From NCBI GenBank assembly GCA_012455605.1, contig GCA_012455605.1_3618.1: DNA of 64,000 nucleotides; one strand, 5' to 3'. This stretch comes from a phage. The position numbers and the translations under genes are program-made. Under the pieces are notes generated by a model that was not told where the DNA came from, searched no databases, and saw only the letters and a list, made by a program, of their open reading frames with translations. Shown piece by piece: positions 41,852 through 48,394 of the stretch. Position 1 is the first letter of the stretch. Every line of letters begins with the position of its first letter.

Positions 41852-42259
41852 ATGTCTAAAATGCTATATATCGTGCGTGGTCTACCAGGGTCTGGCAAAT
41901 CAACACTGGCAAATGCGCTATCTTTAGAAGGTCTGTACCCACATTTTGAGAACGACATGTTCTGGTACGACGATGACGGCAATTACAACTGGGATGCAAG
42001 TAAAGTAACACTTGCAGCAAAATGGTGCAAAGATAACGTAGAAGATATGATGCGTATGGGATACGACCGTATCGTGGTAAGTAATACGTTTACAAAAGAA
42101 AAATACGTGCAAAAATATATTGACATGGCAATCAGCTATGGGTATAGTTATACCGTAATCGTGGTTGAAAACCGCCACGGTAATAAAAGCATTCATGCTT
42201 CAGACGAGGTTGTGGATCGTATGGAGCGCCAGCTTAAAAACTGCATCAAACTTAAATGA
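41852..42259 (+). CDS. polynucleotide 5-prime-kinase-like P-loop kinase
   Basis: MLYIVRGLPGSGKST resembles the T4 Pnk kinase N-terminus (ILTIGCPGSGKST); start at ATG after RBS ggaggg. Confidence 0.55.
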   Translation: MSKMLYIVRGLPGSGKSTLANALSLEGLYPHFENDMFWYDDDGNYNWDASKVTLAAKWCKDNVEDMMRMGYDRIVVSNTFTKEKYVQKYIDMAISYGYSYTVIVVENRHGNKSIHASDEVVDRMERQLKNCIKLK

Positions 42260-42266
42260 GGAATGT

Positions 42267-42821
42267 ATGAAATACTTTGTAACAAGCGACACACACTTTC
42301 TCCACCAGCGGGTCATGGAGTTTGATTCATGTCAAAAACACAGATCTCAATATGATCACAATCTTGACAGTATGAATGCGGGAATCATCACCAAGTGGAA
42401 CTCTGTTGTGTCACCTGCAGACACTGTGTTCCACCTGGGAGATATTGCGTGCACTAATGATAAGAATATCAACAACTTACTTCCAGATATTCTAAATATG
42501 TTGAACGGACATATTATTCTTGTTCGTGGCAACCATGACACAAGGACGACTGTCAGAATTATGAAAGAGTTCGGTCATGAGGTTGTAGATTATTACGAGC
42601 TTCGCCACAACAAGAATTTGATCTGTATGAGCCATTACCAGTTTGCAAAGTGGAACAGAAAGCCTCACGGATCAGTCCAACTGTTCGGTCATGCTCACGG
42701 AACCACACAACAGTTGTTTGGCAGACAGCTTGATGTCGGTTGGGATGTGTGGGGGAGACTCTTACCATTAGAAGAGGCATACCGTATTGCAATGAGTTTT
42801 GCTATTGACAGCGGGGAGTAA
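42267..42821 (+). CDS. calcineurin-like metallophosphoesterase
   Basis: SDTHF, GDIA, GNHD and GHAHG metallophosphatase motifs. Confidence 0.65.
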   Translation: MKYFVTSDTHFLHQRVMEFDSCQKHRSQYDHNLDSMNAGIITKWNSVVSPADTVFHLGDIACTNDKNINNLLPDILNMLNGHIILVRGNHDTRTTVRIMKEFGHEVVDYYELRHNKNLICMSHYQFAKWNRKPHGSVQLFGHAHGTTQQLFGRQLDVGWDVWGRLLPLEEAYRIAMSFAIDSGE

Positions 42822-42868
42822 TCCCTGCTATTTTAAAGAAAATTGCCACACAAGGAGAATCAGGAGAT

Positions 42869-43219
42869 ATGAAAGATGGGGATAAGCTGCTATATCTTAA
42901 AGTCCCCCTTGAAATACTGTCTATGTCAAAAGTTTTGAATGACACAACTGGGGAGGTTGTTGTTCTTGACTTGTATGACAAGATCGTATACTGCTACCTG
43001 CACAACTGGTATAAACTTAGAGGAAATTCACGCTTCACACCCAGCACAAGGAAAATTGCAGCAGATGTTGGGATAAAGAAAACAAAAGCAGCAGCGTGCG
43101 TTAAAACTTTAGAATGTGCAGGAGTGGTTGAAACATCCACACAAGGGAGAGGTAAAAGATGCACATTTTCCAAAGTTTTGCCACCAGAAGAAGTTATTCG
43201 GATGTCAACAACTGGTTAG
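42869..43219 (+). CDS. hypothetical protein with HTH-like segment
   Basis: STRKIAADVGIKKTKAAACVKTLECAGVVE looks like a winged-helix/HTH. Confidence 0.4.
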   Translation: MKDGDKLLYLKVPLEILSMSKVLNDTTGEVVVLDLYDKIVYCYLHNWYKLRGNSRFTPSTRKIAADVGIKKTKAAACVKTLECAGVVETSTQGRGKRCTFSKVLPPEEVIRMSTTG

Positions 43220-43294
43220 ACCAGTAAAAACTTAAATATCTGTACTATAAGGATTCGTATGTTTTATGTTCGCCATGGAACGGATACTATTAAC

Positions 43295-43353
43295 TGTCCG
43301 TAATACGGACACTACTGTCCGTCACGCGGACACATCTGCCCGTAATACGGACA
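43295..43353. promoter_or_regulatory. three tandem palindromic operator-like sites at 21 bp spacing
   Basis: TGTCCGTA-A-TACGGACA (43295-43311), TGTCCGT-cac-GCGGACA (43316-43332), TGCCCGTA-A-TACGGACA (43337-43353). Confidence 0.55.
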
Positions 43354-43489
43354 CATAAAGAATATAACTAAAATAACTAAATAATAAAAAATAAAAGATC
43401 TAGTACTTATGGTACTAAGTACATATACTTAACTTATGTAGAATATACTAGATCCTAAGTACCATGTTTTAAATTTATTACTTACTATG

Positions 43490-43740
43490 GGCAGTGTCGG
43501 CCCTTCATTGGCACTCGCCTACGAGGGGCGAGATGCCGGGCCTCCTTGGTGCACACAATAACAGAAGTGCACACATGCAGGTCTGTTAACATGTGTGGGA
43601 GCGAAGCTATAGCGCAGGCCAAAGGCCGAGCACTGATGTGGACCACCGACGAAAGCTTGCCAGCGCCGTAAGGAGTCGGTTGAGAGTCTCCCGCGCGAGC
43701 TTGGATGAAGTTTATGTGTGGAAACTGACAAGAAGGTCCC
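43490..43740 (+). ncRNA. GC-rich structured element, candidate non-coding RNA or regulatory structure (strand unknown)
   Basis: local GC spike in an AT-rich genome; nested hairpins GGCA-CTCGCC...GGCGAG-TGCC, GTGCACACA repeated, CACATG...CATGTG, GGCC-aaa-GGCC; only a low-complexity antisense ORF. Confidence 0.3.
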
Positions 43741-43857
43741 TAAATCGCTCCACAGCTATATAAACTATACCAGGTAATGCAATCGCACCAGTTTGATAGA
43801 AAAGCTCGTTACAAAGCGATACAGTGAGTTTTTCTATAACTTGAAGAGGAGGCAGCT

Positions 43858-44436
43858 ATGGGTTCACGCAAAGATGACCGTGAAAAGATTGCAAAACGTT
43901 ATCAGAATGAAGAACAGATGGAGAAAACTTTCAAGTGGAAGCCAGGTTTCCAGCGTAATCATTCTAACGCTCGTGATCGTAAGCATCCGGATAAGTGGCT
44001 AACACCGCCAAATGATGGCATGCAGGTTGGGGATGAGAAGGAGATGTCGCCTGGAAAAGATGGCAACTACATTCGCACTAAGGACGCTGGTCCAAAGGAT
44101 GACAGCTATCTTGTAGATAAGGTTCTTGATGGTATCAATGTAGATGTTGACACTGCACGAAACCTTTTTCTTGGGTGGTATCGCACAGGTTTTTTCGACA
44201 TCAAGGCTATTCGTCGTGTTTGTGATATTAAAAAGTCTGCATATGATGACGACTCGTTACATCGCACCCTGAGACAATATTCAGAAAGATATGGTCATCC
44301 GGTTATCACTCTTGACGATGTTAACGAAGTGATGTATCATGCAGATGTTGTTGCAGGAAGATTTGGTGATGCATATCTTGATATCCTTTCTGCAAAGGAT
44401 GAGGTAATGTTAAATAAGATTTACTATGAACGCTGA
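43858..44436 (+). CDS. hypothetical protein (192 aa)
   Basis: ORF with strong RBS gaggagg. Confidence 0.5.
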   Translation: MGSRKDDREKIAKRYQNEEQMEKTFKWKPGFQRNHSNARDRKHPDKWLTPPNDGMQVGDEKEMSPGKDGNYIRTKDAGPKDDSYLVDKVLDGINVDVDTARNLFLGWYRTGFFDIKAIRRVCDIKKSAYDDDSLHRTLRQYSERYGHPVITLDDVNEVMYHADVVAGRFGDAYLDILSAKDEVMLNKIYYER

Positions 44437-44446
44437 GGGGTGATTA

Positions 44447-44635
44447 ATGAACAATCCGGTAGCAAAGAACTGTAATAAATTCAACAAGTCTGCTATTCAC
44501 ACTGACAGGAAAAAGAGTTGGTTTCCTGACATTGACGAGGAGCTTGAGAGTTACTTTGAAGATTTAGTCACCAATGCGGATGAGGTTGCGATTAAAGAAT
44601 ACGCAGACAGGCGAGATAAGGCCGGAATCTGTTGA
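44447..44635 (+). CDS. hypothetical protein (62 aa)
   Basis: ORF with RBS gagggg. Confidence 0.4.
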   Translation: MNNPVAKNCNKFNKSAIHTDRKKSWFPDIDEELESYFEDLVTNADEVAIKEYADRRDKAGIC

Positions 44636-44660
44636 CAAAAATAATGTTACCTGATAAGAT
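44632..44660 (+). promoter_or_regulatory. sigma70-like promoter (TTGACA-17-TAAGAT)
   Basis: consensus -35 with 17 bp spacer. Confidence 0.5.
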
Positions 44661-44711
44661 CTGCAATATGATGTGATACAATTTTAACTTACGAGGTCTA
44701 CAGGTAATGCT

Positions 44712-44954
44712 ATGTTTAAGGTTAAGCTCGTTTTTCGTTCCATGAATGAGGATTATTTAGAAGATGAAGGTGAATTTCGTGCACTGGATGATGCAATAGA
44801 TTTTGCCAACGACTTAGCTTGTATGAATACGGGTTATGGGCTATGCTGTTGGGATGGTGGTGTTCAGATCGGTGATAGCAAGATCTTCTACTTCTACCCT
44901 GAGCCTGATAACAAACAAATTAAGTATGTTTTATTTATTTGTGCTTTACAATGA
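44712..44954 (+). CDS. hypothetical protein (80 aa)
   Basis: ORF downstream of promoter. Confidence 0.4.
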   Translation: MFKVKLVFRSMNEDYLEDEGEFRALDDAIDFANDLACMNTGYGLCCWDGGVQIGDSKIFYFYPEPDNKQIKYVLFICALQ

Positions 44955-45241
44955 GGTTGTTTTCGTGTATCATGATGAATATCCAATTTAAAGATGAATT
45001 TGATGGCTTTATCTCTGGATGCTTTGAAACAGGGTTCGGAGAAGACTGAGTTCCCCTTAGAGGGCTTGATAGTGCACCACACTTAAAATGGTAGGGGCAG
45101 CCAGCACATGACGATGTGACCCAAGCCAACCTGTAATAAGGTCGAGCCAAAGTGCGGTAATGGGCTCTGGTAACCCACTTGTTGGGTCTTGCTGGTCCAG
45201 GACGCTGGACAAGTCGCAGGGAATACCACCCTGCGGCGAAC

Positions 45242-45733: not shown

Positions 45734-45805
45734 GCCCTGTTAGCTTAGTGGATAAAGCAGCGGCCTTCTAAGCCGTTGACACTGGTTCGAGTCCAGTACG
45801 GGGTG
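45734..45805 (+). tRNA. tRNA-Arg (anticodon TCT)
   Basis: hand-folded cloverleaf: acceptor GCCCTGT/ACGGGGT, anticodon arm GCGGC-cttCTaa-GCCGT, T-arm ACTGG-ttcgagt-CCAGT, encoded CCA. Confidence 0.75.
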
Positions 45806-45812
45806 CCAAATT

Positions 45813-45896
45813 GGGGAGTTATCCCGTAGAGGTAGCGGTGTAGACTGTAAATCTATTGTCATTGCGACTCGGGTGGTTCGACTCCACCACTCCCCA
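45813..45896 (+). tRNA. tRNA-Tyr (anticodon GTA)
   Basis: acceptor GGGGAGT/ACTCCCC, anticodon arm with CTGTAAATCT as in E. coli tRNA-Tyr, long variable arm, encoded CCA. Confidence 0.7.
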
Positions 45897-46013
45897 CCAA
45901 ATTTATATTTTTAGATGCATAAATAATACAGATAATGGCATTGATATTTATCGTCGTTTATACTAGTCACTAACTGCTCGAAAATCAGTGTCATTATCAG
46001 TATAATTTATAAA

Positions 46014-46101
46014 GGAGGGTAGGGAGCAATGGTGCTCAAGCGGTCTTGAAAACCGTCCCGTTGAGGATGACTCGATGATGGTTCGATTCCATTACTCTCC
46101 G
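46014..46101 (+). tRNA. tRNA-Ser (anticodon TGA)
   Basis: acceptor GGAGGGT/ACTCTCC, anticodon arm GCGGT-cttgaaa-ACCGT, long variable arm, discriminator G, encoded CCA. Confidence 0.7.
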
Positions 46102-46202
46102 CCACATTGTTGACCTTGTAATTAAGCGAAAGCCGGAAGCAGAACCGGATTATCAAATGTTACAGTCGTCATCGCCGACTAGCAACATGGTCAACATACT
46201 GA

Positions 46203-46299
46203 GCTAGGTAAGCCCTTTGGCAAGGGCGAGGATTTTTAATCCTGAAAATAGACGAGGTAGTCGTTGAATACATAGGTGGTTCGATTCCATCACCTAGCA
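46203..46299 (+). tRNA. aberrant tRNA-like gene (Leu-type body, non-canonical anticodon loop; possible pseudo-tRNA)
   Basis: acceptor GCTAGGT/ACCTAGC, D-arm GCCC-tttggcaa-GGGC, T-arm GGTGG-ttcgatt-CCATC, discriminator A; anticodon region AGGAT-tttta-ATCCT has a 5-nt loop (or UUU in the alternative fold); over-long variable region; no encoded CCA. Confidence 0.4.
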
Positions 46300-46306
46300 C
46301 CTTTTT

Positions 46307-46379
46307 GCTGATGTAGCACAATCGGTAGTGCAATTGATTTGTAATCAATAGGTTGTAGGTTCAAGTCCTGCCATCAGCA
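46307..46379 (+). tRNA. tRNA-Thr (anticodon TGT)
   Basis: acceptor GCTGATG/CATCAGC, anticodon arm ATTGA-tttgtaa-TCAAT, encoded CCA. Confidence 0.75.
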
Positions 46380-46383
46380 CCAA

Positions 46384-46455
46384 GGCCCTGTAGCTGGAAG
46401 GTTCAAGCAAGCGACTCATAATCGCCAGACGGTGGTTCAATTCCACCCAGGGCCA
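46384..46455 (+). tRNA. tRNA-Met or Ile2 (anticodon CAT)
   Basis: acceptor GGCCCTG/CAGGGCC, anticodon loop ctCATaa, T-arm GGTGG-ttcaatt-CCACC, encoded CCA. Confidence 0.7.
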
Positions 46456-46469
46456 CCAAATAATAAATA

Positions 46470-46543
46470 CTCCGCGTAGCTCAGCTTGGTAGAGCGCCTG
46501 ATTTGGGATCAGGAGGTCGAGTGTTCGAATCACTCCGTGGAGA
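46470..46543 (+). tRNA. tRNA-Pro (anticodon TGG)
   Basis: acceptor CTCCGCG/CGTGGAG, anticodon arm CCTGA-tttggga-TCAGG, encoded CCA. Confidence 0.75.
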
Positions 46544-46592
46544 CCACTTTCAGTTATACTTTAAACATATACAAACAAAAGGAACCTTTAAA

Positions 46593-47650: not shown

Positions 47651-48075
47651 TGTCTAAGATTTACGGACCGTGTTCTGAAAAGCAGAAGATGATCCTCGAA
47701 AACGATGCAGATATTTTGGTAATCGGCGGTGCCGCAGGGTCTGGCAAGTCGTTCCTCTTGCAGTTGATGCCACTTAAAATTATTGATGACCCCCACAGCT
47801 CTGTGGTTATGTTCCGAAGAACAACCCCACAGTTGGAAGGTGAGGGTGGACTATGGCCTAAAGCAGTAGCTATTTATAGTGATCTGCCTGAAAACATTAA
47901 GCCAAAGTTCAGAGAGAAGGATCATAAGTTCATTTTTCCACGGTTTGATCCGAACACTGGCAAGTGGGATAGAAGCAAAAAGGGAGCTGTTGTAAAATAC
48001 TGCCACATGGAGTATGTACAAGATAAGCTTAACCATCAGGGGCTTGAGTACACCATGGTTTGCTTCGATGAGGGT
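47650..48075 (+). CDS. terL: terminase large subunit, exon 1 (ATPase N-terminus: Walker A to Walker B)
   Basis: Walker A GGAAGSGKS; ends with YTMVCFDEG (Walker B-like) just before the stop; downstream ORF supplies the rest of the protein. Confidence 0.7.
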
Positions 48076-48394
48076 TAATTTGTAGCTCTCGTAAAACCTC
48101 CCTAATTGCGGGGAAATCTTTATTATTGACACCACCAGCCTGTTATGGTAACATAATAGAGGCTTCGAAGAGAGATCGAAGGTATGGTAACAGTGTGTTA
48201 ATTTAGATAATCCGCAGCGAAGCATCCGAGAGGATGAACGTTCAACGACTAGTCGAAAGACGTAGAATCAAGCGATTCGAAACGGGAGGGTAAGCGGTTG
48301 TTGTCGCTTATAAGATATAGTCTGGTCTGCATGGAGACATGCAGCTGCCTGAAAATGGCGGGGCAAGACTAGCGACCTTGCCCGAACATGAACG
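48076..48394 (+). mobile_element. group I self-splicing intron (IA2-like, no ORF) in the terminase large subunit gene
   Basis: core elements present in canonical order: P AATTGCGGGGAAA (48104-48116), Q AATCCGCAGC (48209-48218), R GTTCAACGACTAGTCGAAAG (48240-48259), S AAGATATAGTC (48312-48322); P1 pairing of exon GAGGGU (48070-48075) with intron GCUCUC (48085-48090) including U-G at the splice site; 3-prime boundary inferred from frame (alternatives to about 48430). Confidence 0.8.

Follow-up and report, generated by a model that had tools for sequence, protein, structure and literature searches.

The small winged-helix gene described here and the repeats and AT-rich DNA downstream of it probably constitute a theta-type replication origin of the rV5-like phages, made up of an origin-binding protein, iterons, and an unwinding element. 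The window, that is, the whole 64-kb stretch of DNA that was analyzed, belongs to an rV5-like E. coli myovirus (Vequintavirus). Most likely, the dyad-symmetric repeats of this candidate origin are putative binding sites for the neighboring small DNA-binding protein and do not form a transcription switch. Phages of this group belong to the E. coli and STEC phages that are isolated most often, and therapy and biocontrol are candidate uses for them. To our knowledge, the replication origin of this common E. coli phage group has never been mapped.

Results

The sequence-only reading of this DNA had pointed to three 17-bp palindromes, one perfect and two near-perfect, phased at 21 bp. They are present as described: three dyads of the form TGTCCG-N5-CGGACA begin at 43295, 43316, and 43337, with start-to-start distances of 21 and 21 bp. 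The array and its left flank comprise the following features.

43268..43293, no strand: hypervariable spacer of 26 bp, directly left of the array (nucleotide diversity 0.30)
43294..43312, no strand: iteron 1, CTGTCCGTAATACGGACAC, a perfect dyad; its 17-mer TGTCCGTAATACGGACA (43295-43311) is a perfect 8-1-8 palindrome
43315..43333, no strand: iteron 2, CTGTCCGTCACGCGGACAC; its 17-mer TGTCCGTCACGCGGACA (43316-43332) has perfect 6-bp arms and a different center
43336..43354, no strand: iteron 3, CTGCCCGTAATACGGACAC; its 17-mer TGCCCGTAATACGGACA (43337-43353) has one arm mismatch

With up to three mismatches allowed, the 17-mer occurs at only these three places in the 64 kb, compared with 0.11 expected from shuffled sequences, and 100 shuffles never gave as many. 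The closest relative is phage nomine, and its complete genome of 137,991 bp served for comparison; beyond the array, which is single-copy there, it contains no dyad with at most one mismatch. A search for the half-site TGTCCG, which had been suggested for the whole genome, was run on the window. The half-site is not enriched overall (16 observed, 17 expected), yet 5 of the 16 fall inside the 59-bp cluster of the three dyads. The dyads are unique in both the window and the nomine genome.

The half-site centers are separated by 11 bp and the sites by two helical turns; therefore, the putative dimers would all lie on one face of the DNA. Four copies, spaced by 21, 21, and 22 bp, are present in 7 of the 10 complete arrays examined, the fourth unit lying 22 bp further to the right. 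Three copies are a derived state, with a different unit lost in the window, in nomine, and in one metagenome contig. A degenerate copy to the left of the array was considered as a fifth iteron and rejected, since it is 25 bp away rather than 21 and lies in the hypervariable spacer.

The nucleotide diversity of the array is 0.020, compared with 0.10-0.13 at the third codon positions of the neighboring genes, whereas that of the adjacent spacer (43268-43293) exceeds the same reference at 0.30. Across arrays, the dyad arms are invariant and the 5-nt centers vary. A homolog with 69% protein identity retains both the TGTCCG-N5-CGGACA dyad and the 21-bp phase, its contig ending inside the repeats. 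Strong purifying selection on the locus across 120 genomes indicates a function for the phage itself. It is extremely improbable that the array is a functionless tandem repeat, left in intergenic DNA by slippage or duplication. A copy number of three or four reached by unit deletions would be expected of such debris, and "repeat_region" is the sole annotation of the array in several database records. However, invariant arms around variable centers, a diversity five times below that of synonymous sites, and retention of dyad and phase at 69% protein identity are not, and slippage does not explain the internal dyad symmetry.

An HTH-like gene had been proposed upstream of the repeats, and the open reading frame at this position does encode a winged helix-turn-helix. 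The array begins 76 bp past its stop codon.

42805..42834, + strand: sigma-70-like promoter upstream of the winged-helix gene (TTGACA, 18-nt spacer, TG-extended TATTTT; 10/12 matches)
42869..43219, + strand: gene of a 116-aa winged helix-turn-helix protein, the candidate origin-binding protein, a stand-alone DUF6945/HTH_36 domain

The rV5 annotation places promoter P76 at the same position as the 42805-42834 promoter, and no terminator-like site was found after the gene. The promoter implies early expression by the host RNA polymerase and transcription into the repeat region, a function that we infer from its sequence.

By the curated Pfam thresholds the 116-aa protein is borderline, without membership: it scores 27.4 bits against DUF6945 (PF22182; cutoff 28, E 3.6e-6) and 23.2 bits against HTH_36 (cutoff 25). 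RepA_N (PF06970) gave no match at E up to 0.1, nor did Phage_rep_O match. PHROG 12838, "replication initiation protein", matches with E 6e-79, and the other PHROG matches are weak and to generic "replication initiation" families. The best sequence match in the PDB is 4RO3, the N-terminal DNA-binding domain of the Vibrio cholerae PLE RepA, over residues 8-95 (E 2e-6 with the single sequence, 4.8e-8 with the family profile), at 39% identity over about 80 residues of the aligned fragment. The 4RO3 fragment itself defines Pfam DUF6945 (E 2e-22).

An AlphaFold2 model built from an alignment that included the 69% homolog reached pLDDT 74.6 and pTM 0.73; a five-sequence run (pLDDT 45) was discarded. 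The model predicts a RepA_N/DnaD-like N-terminal domain fold, with N-terminal strands and a winged helix. In a Foldseek search with it, 4RO3 takes ranks 1-2 (E 4.6e-5, TM 0.65), and ranks 3-8 are mostly staphylococcal RepA_N initiator domains (4PQL, 4PT7, 5KBJ) at TM about 0.5. The margin is modest: PefI stands at rank 5, LexA at rank 9 with nearly the E-value of RepA_N, and the generic winged-helix repressors LexA, CodY, and PefI are just 1-2 orders of magnitude weaker. By sequence, the RepA_N structures are not significant matches against the PDB (E about 0.7-1.1). The closest characterized relative by sequence and predicted fold is the N-terminal domain of PLE RepA, followed by the staphylococcal RepA_N initiators. 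The full 116 residues are modeled as a DNA-binding domain plus one short helix, lacking a C-terminal replisome-recruitment domain.

An exhaustive HMM search of 1.84 billion representative sequences recovered just 21 relatives of the protein. Nine of the ten relatives scanned are HTH_36 and/or DUF6945 proteins, some of them with weak signals for DnaD_N, RepL, or Phage_rep_O; two have a GIY-YIG nuclease fused to them. Word-indexed protein searches found nothing beyond close homologs (69% identity or more), metagenomes yielded only close relatives of the locus, and IMG/VR yielded none.

Annotators often call the gene a transcriptional regulator. The 116-aa protein could accordingly be a repressor or activator that binds the dyads cooperatively, that either controls a promoter of phage-specific type within the AT-rich tract or stops read-through into the downstream genes, and that so sets an early/late boundary. 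We regard this as unlikely. The winged helix is a generic one, and weak matches to CodY, LexA, and GntR are compatible with a regulator; these and a match to TrmB are below threshold and weaker than the match to the RepA N-terminal domain. Residues 8-45, which precede the HTH, are homologous to that domain specifically and not to regulators. The domain families of the scanned relatives, GIY-YIG fusions apart, speak against a regulator as well. Most of the top viral structural matches are nameless; several of the named ones carry an annotation as replication protein or initiator, and ICP1 ORF88 (Odn) was likewise found.

Similar dyads occur elsewhere. The same core, phased at 21-24 bp (mostly 21), is found three and six times in the linker of two initiator-like genes on unrelated high-GC phage contigs (L008 and L009), with a match to O-like replication-initiator PHROGs for one of the two genes. 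Bacterial genomes gave seven loci with phased dyad pairs, a mixed set that is mostly uninterpretable in high-GC DNA. At one of them, in a Ruminococcus MAG, phased TGTCCG-N5-CGGACA pairs adjoin a GntR-type regulator gene and an ABC transporter operon, which lends the operator explanation some support. An origin can therefore not be diagnosed from the DNA pattern by itself.

To the right of the dyads, the AT-rich, dyad-rich sequence noted in the earlier reading is confirmed as a tract with inverted repeats and three copies of TAAGTAC.

43355..43485, no strand: AT-rich tract (80% A+T) adjoining the dyads, candidate DNA-unwinding element

The tract carries a tandem ATAACTAAA in two copies (43364-43381), two GATC sites (43397 and 43451), and two interleaved inverted repeats (43397-43405/43446-43454 and 43409-43419/43455-43465). 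It is the least stable duplex of the window at 40, 60, and 130 bp and the top-ranked region at 100 bp; in the whole 138-kb nomine genome it is the least stable DNA at 60, 100, and 130 bp. Its diversity of 0.027, compared with 0.10-0.13 at third codon positions, shows that the sequence is conserved and not merely the composition. No DnaA-box or IHF consensus was found in 43200-43860.

Conservation of sequence is also what a promoter in the tract would display. A scan of both strands that covered sigma-70-type promoters found none between 42834 and 44220; since phage-specific promoters could differ from this type, the protein may have a regulatory role, either by itself or next to that in an origin. 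The rV5 authors annotated no promoter overlapping or adjoining the dyads. In the intergenic DNA, motifs of the T4-like and rV5 "late promoter" types were rejected, being poor or at nonconserved positions. The repeats had been taken for sites of cooperative dimer binding, and this holds in part: the dyads look cognate to the adjacent, putatively dimeric winged-helix protein, but a role as transcriptional operators is unsupported. The proposed switch between early and late genes is not borne out, given the absence of a promoter-like site in the scanned region, the single cluster in 138 kb, the initiator-domain relatives, and the position of the dyads beside the global melting minimum.

The locus is placed between early-type genes (kinase, phosphoesterase) and the block leading to the lysis and terminase genes, as a transcription switch might be. 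The genes downstream are a 192-aa gene, tRNAs, lysis genes, and the terminase, the last about 4.3 kb from the locus. The point of divergent transcription, where the GC skew changes sign, is 1.5 kb away. The same skew switch is reported in the rV5 paper, whose skew analysis failed, its authors finding no origin definable. In rV5 coordinates, the candidate origin (43.3-43.5 kb of the window) falls at about 65.0-65.3 kb. An origin at this site would make the replication forks co-directional with transcription on both sides. The skew signal is confounded with transcription direction, which counts against the origin reading.

At the syntenic place in Mydovirus KNP2 and Seunavirus GEC_vB_MG, the winged-helix gene and the array are absent. 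A 118-aa gene that follows the phosphoesterase there was considered and proved unrelated to the 116-aa gene. The gene and array are restricted to one genus and, on this comparison, appear not to be a conserved feature of the subfamily.

Beyond the AT-rich tract lies a conserved, GC-rich element in a genome of 42% GC.

43486..43720, + strand: GC-rich (57%) conserved noncoding element with a predicted fold (fold z-score -2.4) and a putative role in the origin
about 43499-43542, + strand: hairpin 1 of the GC-rich element, predicted fold
43636-43697, + strand: 62-nt core of the GC-rich element, with the stem 43645-43650/43675-43680

By blastn, the element is found elsewhere only in circular, capsid-encoding E. 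coli plasmids of about 13 kb, among them pE275a_13, CP020521, and CP148565. In five stem pairs the phage and plasmid copies differ on both sides, and only the + strand allows the G.U pairs, which argues for an element that acts single-stranded. No Rfam family matches the phage or plasmid copies. Two reading frames, rV5 ORF78 and a 56-aa ORF (43593-43763), were rejected as genes because of a 17-nt indel in rV5, the lack of a conserved frame in the plasmids, and the compensatory stem changes.

The plasmids have their layout in common with the phage locus: the GC-rich core again comes after semi-palindromic repeats that are phased, and an HTH_36 protein that matches initiator families weakly is encoded nearby. 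They also encode homologs of rV5 tail genes. The iterons of the phage array were not found in them. Covariation of the plasmid iteron type with the N-terminal domain of the HTH_36 protein was considered and does not hold in a simple way, as L021 and L022, at 26% identity, have the same iteron type.

A further reading, more novel and of rather low probability, takes the locus as an origin module of three parts: a specificity part formed by the binding-domain-only initiator and its iterons, the unwinding tract, and a structured RNA or ssDNA element of a type not described before. The plasmids that share this element might be extrachromosomal satellites of rV5-like phages, with their own iterons and initiator, that borrow a replisome-loading, priming, or other cis-signal of the helper. 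Such a relationship, likewise tentative, would parallel that of PLE and ICP1, PLE RepA being the closest relative of the phage protein. The plasmid link is the most novel lead of this analysis.

The shared element also bears on another explanation, which we consider quite improbable: the locus may serve a different DNA transaction, as a pac region, as a shield or decoy against satellites or origin-directed nucleases, or as the captured remnant of a mobile replicon or homing cassette. An element common to plasmids with rV5 tail-gene homologs resembles a satellite sharing the cis-signal of its helper, and its GC content stands apart from that of the genome. Confinement to one genus, the proximity of the terminase, and the GIY-YIG fusions of the domain relatives point the same way, and ICP1 Odn, a structural match, attacks satellite origins with the same domain (PMC8263062). 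However, the compensatory stems and strand-specific G.U pairs suggest single-stranded action, unlike a double-stranded pac site. The phage iterons are not shared with the plasmids, no nuclease domain was found in or next to the winged-helix gene, and the purifying selection indicates a function for the phage.

Discussion

We propose that replication would start at this locus as follows. The 116-aa winged-helix protein would be made early from the host-type promoter, and its dimers would bind the three or four 19-bp dyad iterons, lined up on one face of the DNA. The resulting nucleoprotein array, perhaps aided by read-through from the gene's own promoter, would destabilize the adjoining 130-bp AT tract, where the phage's own primase-helicase and polymerase would load. 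The structured GC-rich element may serve as a priming or loading signal, either as RNA or as displaced ssDNA.

The origin reading draws on the PLE RepA and RepA_N relatives of the protein, its fold and family, the anatomy of iterons and AT tract, selection, the single-copy array with no promoter-like site over it, the skew position, the same dyad core inside initiator-like genes of other phage contigs, and the layout common to the plasmids. It is weakened by a protein that is a binding domain alone, by sub-threshold Pfam scores, by the modest fold-search margin over generic winged-helix repressors, by the dyad pairs beside a GntR-type regulator in Ruminococcus, by the lack of DnaA and IHF consensus sites, and by related genera without the module.

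If this reading is correct, an origin of about 200 bp and a 116-aa protein would become available for replication studies, engineering, origin-based vectors, and reporter or conditional phages. The locus would also provide a case in which to ask whether a RepA-type DNA-binding domain that lacks a recruitment domain can nucleate initiation for a phage-encoded primase-helicase. The structured element shared with the 13-kb capsid-encoding plasmids suggests an unrecognized satellite/helper relationship in E. coli.

Comparison with Known Systems

The known system closest to the candidate origin is that of PLE, the replication of which requires RepA, a protein that binds semi-palindromic iterons at its origin (PMC7145576; PMC8263062). 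The DNA-binding domains are homologous (39% identity over about 80 residues, the top structural match), tandem semi-palindromic iterons lie in noncoding DNA in both (PMC7145576; PMC8263062), and both elements replicate with a lytic phage's own replisome. However, replisome recruitment is ascribed to a C-terminal domain in PLE RepA, whereas the rV5-type protein is the binding domain alone. The PLE iterons are about 30 bp long and converge on an A tract; those of the rV5-type locus are 19 bp long, with a variable 5-nt center and 21-bp spacing. PLE is a satellite, while the rV5-type element is the phage itself. For PLE both binding and origin function are proven; for the rV5-type locus they are predicted.

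The staphylococcal RepA_N initiators (pSK41, pTZ2162; 4PQL, 4PT7, 5KBJ) have the same predicted N-terminal domain fold, and their iterons are tandem semi-palindromes bound by dimers (PMC7145576). They give no significant sequence match; the 116-aa protein lacks their C-terminal host-specific domain, and the rV5-type replicon is a lytic phage of a Gram-negative host.

In ori-lambda, an AT-rich tract that becomes unwound flanks the 19-bp iterons, which are imperfect inverted repeats and number four (range 4-6) (PMC7466680). The rV5-type locus likewise has inverted-repeat iterons of about 19 bp, three or four in number, beside an AT-rich tract, an anatomy that matches classical iteron origins. 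A dimeric winged-helix N-terminal domain of O occupies each lambda iteron, which is predicted for the rV5-type protein by analogy, and an upstream early promoter could send transcription through the origin or close by it. Conversely, ori-lambda lies within the O gene, as the L008 and L009 dyads lie within theirs, whereas the rV5-type iterons begin 76 bp after the stop codon. The 116-aa protein has neither a Phage_rep_O match nor the C-terminal domain of O. Neither a P-like loader nor dependence on DnaB is evident; the rV5-type phage encodes its own primase-helicase.

The lambda operators OR1-3 (CI/Cro) resemble the array in having three 17-bp dyad-symmetric sites close together near a small HTH gene, and cooperative dimer binding would be likely here by analogy. 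However, they overlap PR and PRM, whereas the rV5-type dyads have no detectable promoter and abut a melting-prone tract, and the 116-aa protein is a RepA-type winged helix rather than a CI/Cro-type HTH.

A candidate replication origin

We consider this locus rather likely to be a replication origin served by a dedicated binding protein, because an initiator-type binding domain is paired with single-copy phased dyad iterons, a conserved global melting minimum directly adjoins the dyads, no promoter is detectable at the site and an early promoter reads into it, and the same layout occurs in plasmid-like elements and in O-like genes. If so, this would be the first mapping of an origin for this large virulent myovirus.

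Features of the locus (window positions)
42805-42834, good sigma-70-type promoter, annotated P76 in rV5
42869-43219 (+), gene of the 116-aa winged-helix protein
43268-43293, 26-bp spacer
43295, start of dyad 1, TGTCCGTAATACGGACA
43316, start of dyad 2, TGTCCGTCACGCGGACA
43337, start of dyad 3, TGCCCGTAATACGGACA
43355-43485, AT-rich tract, 80% A+T
43486-43720, non-coding GC-rich element, 57% G+C, with a 62-nt core at 43636-43697

The three phased palindromes claimed by the sequence-only reading were all found, and the 17-mer with up to three mismatches matches nothing else in 64 kb (0.11 matches expected). The nomine genome (137,991 bp) has no further dyad copy at up to one mismatch. A search for the half-site TGTCCG, proposed in the same reading, gave a divided answer: five of the 16 sites in the window lie in the array, but the hexamer is not enriched overall (17 expected). 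Ten complete arrays from relatives were aligned, and four units spaced 21, 21 and 22 bp apart are the common state, with a different single unit lost in each of the window, nomine and one metagenome contig. All copies have the fixed arms CTG(T/C)CCG and CGGACAC around five variable central bases; the reading as a functionless repeat can effectively be set aside. A distance of 11 bp between half-site centres would let a dimer contact two consecutive major grooves, with all dimers on one helix face, and the earlier reasoning on dimer-binding geometry is upheld at the level of sequence. Phages that are otherwise 90-98% identical differ strongly in the spacer on the left side of the iterons; this hypervariability suggests repeated recombination or decay at the array edge.

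Immediately to the right of the dyads, nearest-neighbour energies make the AT-rich tract the window's minimum of duplex stability at 40, 60 and 130 bp, and it is the top-ranked region at 100 bp. The equivalent tract is least stable in the whole nomine genome at 60, 100 and 130 bp (at 130 bp, -134.5 kcal/mol versus -146.3 for the runner-up). Its conservation concerns the sequence, beyond mere composition. The dyad-rich character noticed earlier is confirmed by two interleaved inverted repeats and three of the window's eight TAAGTAC motifs, and the tract also holds two GATC sites and two tandem copies of the 9-mer ATAACTAAA. No DnaA-box or IHF consensus occurs in 43200-43860.

Nucleotide diversity across the locus
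Iterons, 0.020
AT-rich tract, 0.027
Flanking genes, third codon positions, 0.10-0.13
Left-hand spacer (26 bp), 0.30

The dyads had been proposed to act as an operator switching between early and late genes. P76 lies just upstream of the 116-aa protein gene, no terminator was found in a scan after this gene, and no sigma-70-type promoter was detected between 42834 and 44220. Without a sigma-70-type promoter detected at the dyads, and with initiator-type relatives of the protein, the switch is not borne out, and we regard an operator as unlikely. Initiators often double as regulators; origin and regulatory roles are therefore not mutually exclusive.

The locus lies 1.5 kb from the transcription divergence point and the GC skew sign change, a position that fits an origin but is confounded with transcription. 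An origin could not be defined by skew analysis in the rV5 genome paper, whose authors noted this confounding (PMC3606486). Elsewhere, a gene-free 2.5-kb stretch (~150-2650; nomine 90.5-93.0 kb), the 'non-coding' box of that paper, shows converging transcription and the cumulative GC skew peak; it has dispersed direct and inverted repeats without a phased array.

Phage identity and existing annotation

Across 42000-45000 the sequence shares 97-98% identity with rV5-like E. coli myoviruses (genus Vequintavirus) in about 120 records, among which phage nomine (MN850649) is the closest. Their labels for the 42869-43219 gene range over 'putative transcriptional regulator', 'DNA-binding protein', 'hypothetical protein' and 'replication initiation protein', and the dyads are annotated solely as an unexplained 'repeat_region'. 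Eighteen records titled 'Campylobacter phage' (MG0656xx) are ~97% identical to E. coli rV5-like phages, and the E. coli 'plasmid' CP057073.1 is a deposited 137.6-kb rV5-like genome; mislabelled hosts or a carrier state probably account for these. A group I intron at 48066-48344 (Rfam RF00028, 84 bits, E 6e-20) sits at the place of the large terminase gene in the annotation of relatives. Synteny with phage Alma puts the start of that gene near 47.7 kb, and in nomine it is annotated as uninterrupted. A tRNA cluster at 45734-46546 has seven genes (Arg, Tyr, Ser, Thr, Met, Pro); for an odd one at 46203-46301 the called anticodon has four bases, and different records list it as Lys or 'OTHER'.

The 116-aa protein

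In Pfam the protein scores narrowly below the curated cutoffs, at 27.4 bits for DUF6945 (cutoff 28) and 23.2 bits for HTH_36 (cutoff 25). PHROG 12838 ('replication initiation protein') matches it end to end, and other initiator PHROGs match more weakly. The sole significant match among PDB sequences is 4RO3 (E 2e-6; 4.8e-8 with a six-sequence profile), aligned over residues 8-95 and thus including the strands and helix preceding the HTH; a CodY match (E ~0.004-0.01) is confined to the winged helix. 4RO3 is the N-terminal domain of Vibrio cholerae PLE RepA, a RepA_N-type initiator that binds semi-palindromic iterons of the PLE origin, and PLE replication requires both RepA and these iterons (PMC7145576; PMC8263062). 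As a 4RO3 fragment scores E 2e-22 on DUF6945, this family corresponds to the PLE RepA N-terminal domain.

With a homolog of 69% identity among the input sequences, AlphaFold2 gave a usable model (pLDDT 74.6, pTM 0.73) with the order strand-strand-helix-helix-helix-wing-helix. Foldseek with this predicted model placed 4RO3 top in the PDB (TM 0.65), followed by staphylococcal RepA_N structures (4PQL, 4PT7, 5KBJ), mostly ahead of PefI, LexA and CodY. Top matches among viral models include the origin-directed nuclease Odn (ICP1 ORF88), an Aeromonas phage 'replication protein', the phiPMW DUF6945 protein and metagenomic 'replication initiator' proteins. When 1.84 billion representatives were searched exhaustively by HMM, just 21 relatives came up; nine of ten scanned are HTH_36 and/or DUF6945 proteins, two of the ten are GIY-YIG nuclease fusions, and one multi-domain relative carries DnaD_N, RepL and Phage_rep_O signals. 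These homolog and fold matches indicate a family context of replication initiation and origin- or target-site recognition rather than ligand-responsive regulation. The phage protein itself has no C-terminal domain.

The dyad core in other genomes

In the Logan contig encoding the 69%-identical homolog, the gene is followed by TGTCCGTCACACGGACA and, 21 bp on, by a second unit, where the contig ends. An IMG/VR scan for two phased dyads yielded two unrelated high-GC phage contigs (L008:4906-5030 and L009:820-880), with three and six copies of TGTCCG-N5-CGGACA spaced 21-24 bp (mostly 21) in the linker of a gene whose product has a winged helix at its N terminus; 'replication initiation O-like' PHROGs match one of the two genes. 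Among 185,579 bacterial genomes, phased dyads occur at seven loci (L010-L016), including Myxococcales, Hymenobacter and Ruminococcus. One has a GntR-type regulator next to it, divergently transcribed, and this points to an operator there. The dyad pattern alone does not discriminate origin from operator, and its recurrence in unrelated genomes could reflect a common recognition code or convergence.

The gene-plus-array module is absent from sister genera. In two of their phages (KNP2, L030:1510-1560; L031, ~1762) the local stability minimum falls in the intergenic region from which transcription diverges, upstream of the phosphoesterase genes; in Klebsiella phage KNP2 this region also has a pair of TATTCC-N6-GGAATA dyads spaced 24 bp, which may mark another origin or a regulatory site. 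Judged from sequence, the main weaknesses of the origin assignment are this absence, the lack of a recruitment domain and the near-threshold family scores.

The GC-rich element and capsid-encoding plasmids

By blastn, the conserved GC-rich element, which has predicted hairpins, matches solely 119 Vequintavirus records and five circular E. coli 'plasmids'. When the phage copies are compared with the plasmid copies, both partners have changed in three pairs of the core stem and two of the first hairpin, and the + strand is the only one on which the G.U pairs are valid; the element therefore probably works as a nucleic acid of + polarity, either RNA or single-stranded DNA. Rfam has no family for the phage or plasmid copies, and the element with its core may represent a new kind of structured signal in RNA or single-stranded DNA.

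The plasmids sharing the core (L021/L023, NZ_CP020521.1; L022, NZ_CP043822.1; L024, CP148565.1; L025, NZ_CP035869.1; L026, NZ_CP178698.1) measure 13.2-13.7 kb, apart from a 39.6-kb record with three matching places, probably a trimer. Their gene products include a major head protein, and tape-measure-like and tail proteins with 38-54% amino acid identity to window genes at 55.8-63.2 kb. Their HTH_36 protein (288-306 aa) has weak initiator-PHROG and DnaD_N matches and resembles the recognition helix and wing of the phage protein (E 1e-4). In a 2.2-kb non-coding region, phased semi-palindromic repeats (~21-22 bp) precede the shared core and vary from plasmid to plasmid, like swappable iteron sets; co-variation of iteron types with HTH_36 domains could not be shown among the plasmids compared. 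Ten times 13.7 kb is close to the phage genome size, and these plasmids may be extrachromosomal satellites of rV5-like phages. Other DNA transactions at the phage locus (packaging signals, satellite conflict, a captured replicon) appear quite improbable. We found no paper on such plasmids or the shared element; this link is the most novel lead and merits separate follow-up.

Comparison with known origins

Iteron origins with winged-helix initiators are well known. A phage origin here would be unusual on two counts: its initiator would consist of the binding domain alone, and a structured element would lie beside the unwinding tract. By analogy with lambda O and RepA_N systems, we infer that dimers of the phage protein would occupy the iterons, that the iteron-bound dimers would then distort the AT-rich tract, and that the phage primase-helicase, whose gene is present in the genome, would then load. 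In lambda the origin lies within the initiator gene, the arrangement that the dyads show in the two high-GC phage contigs.
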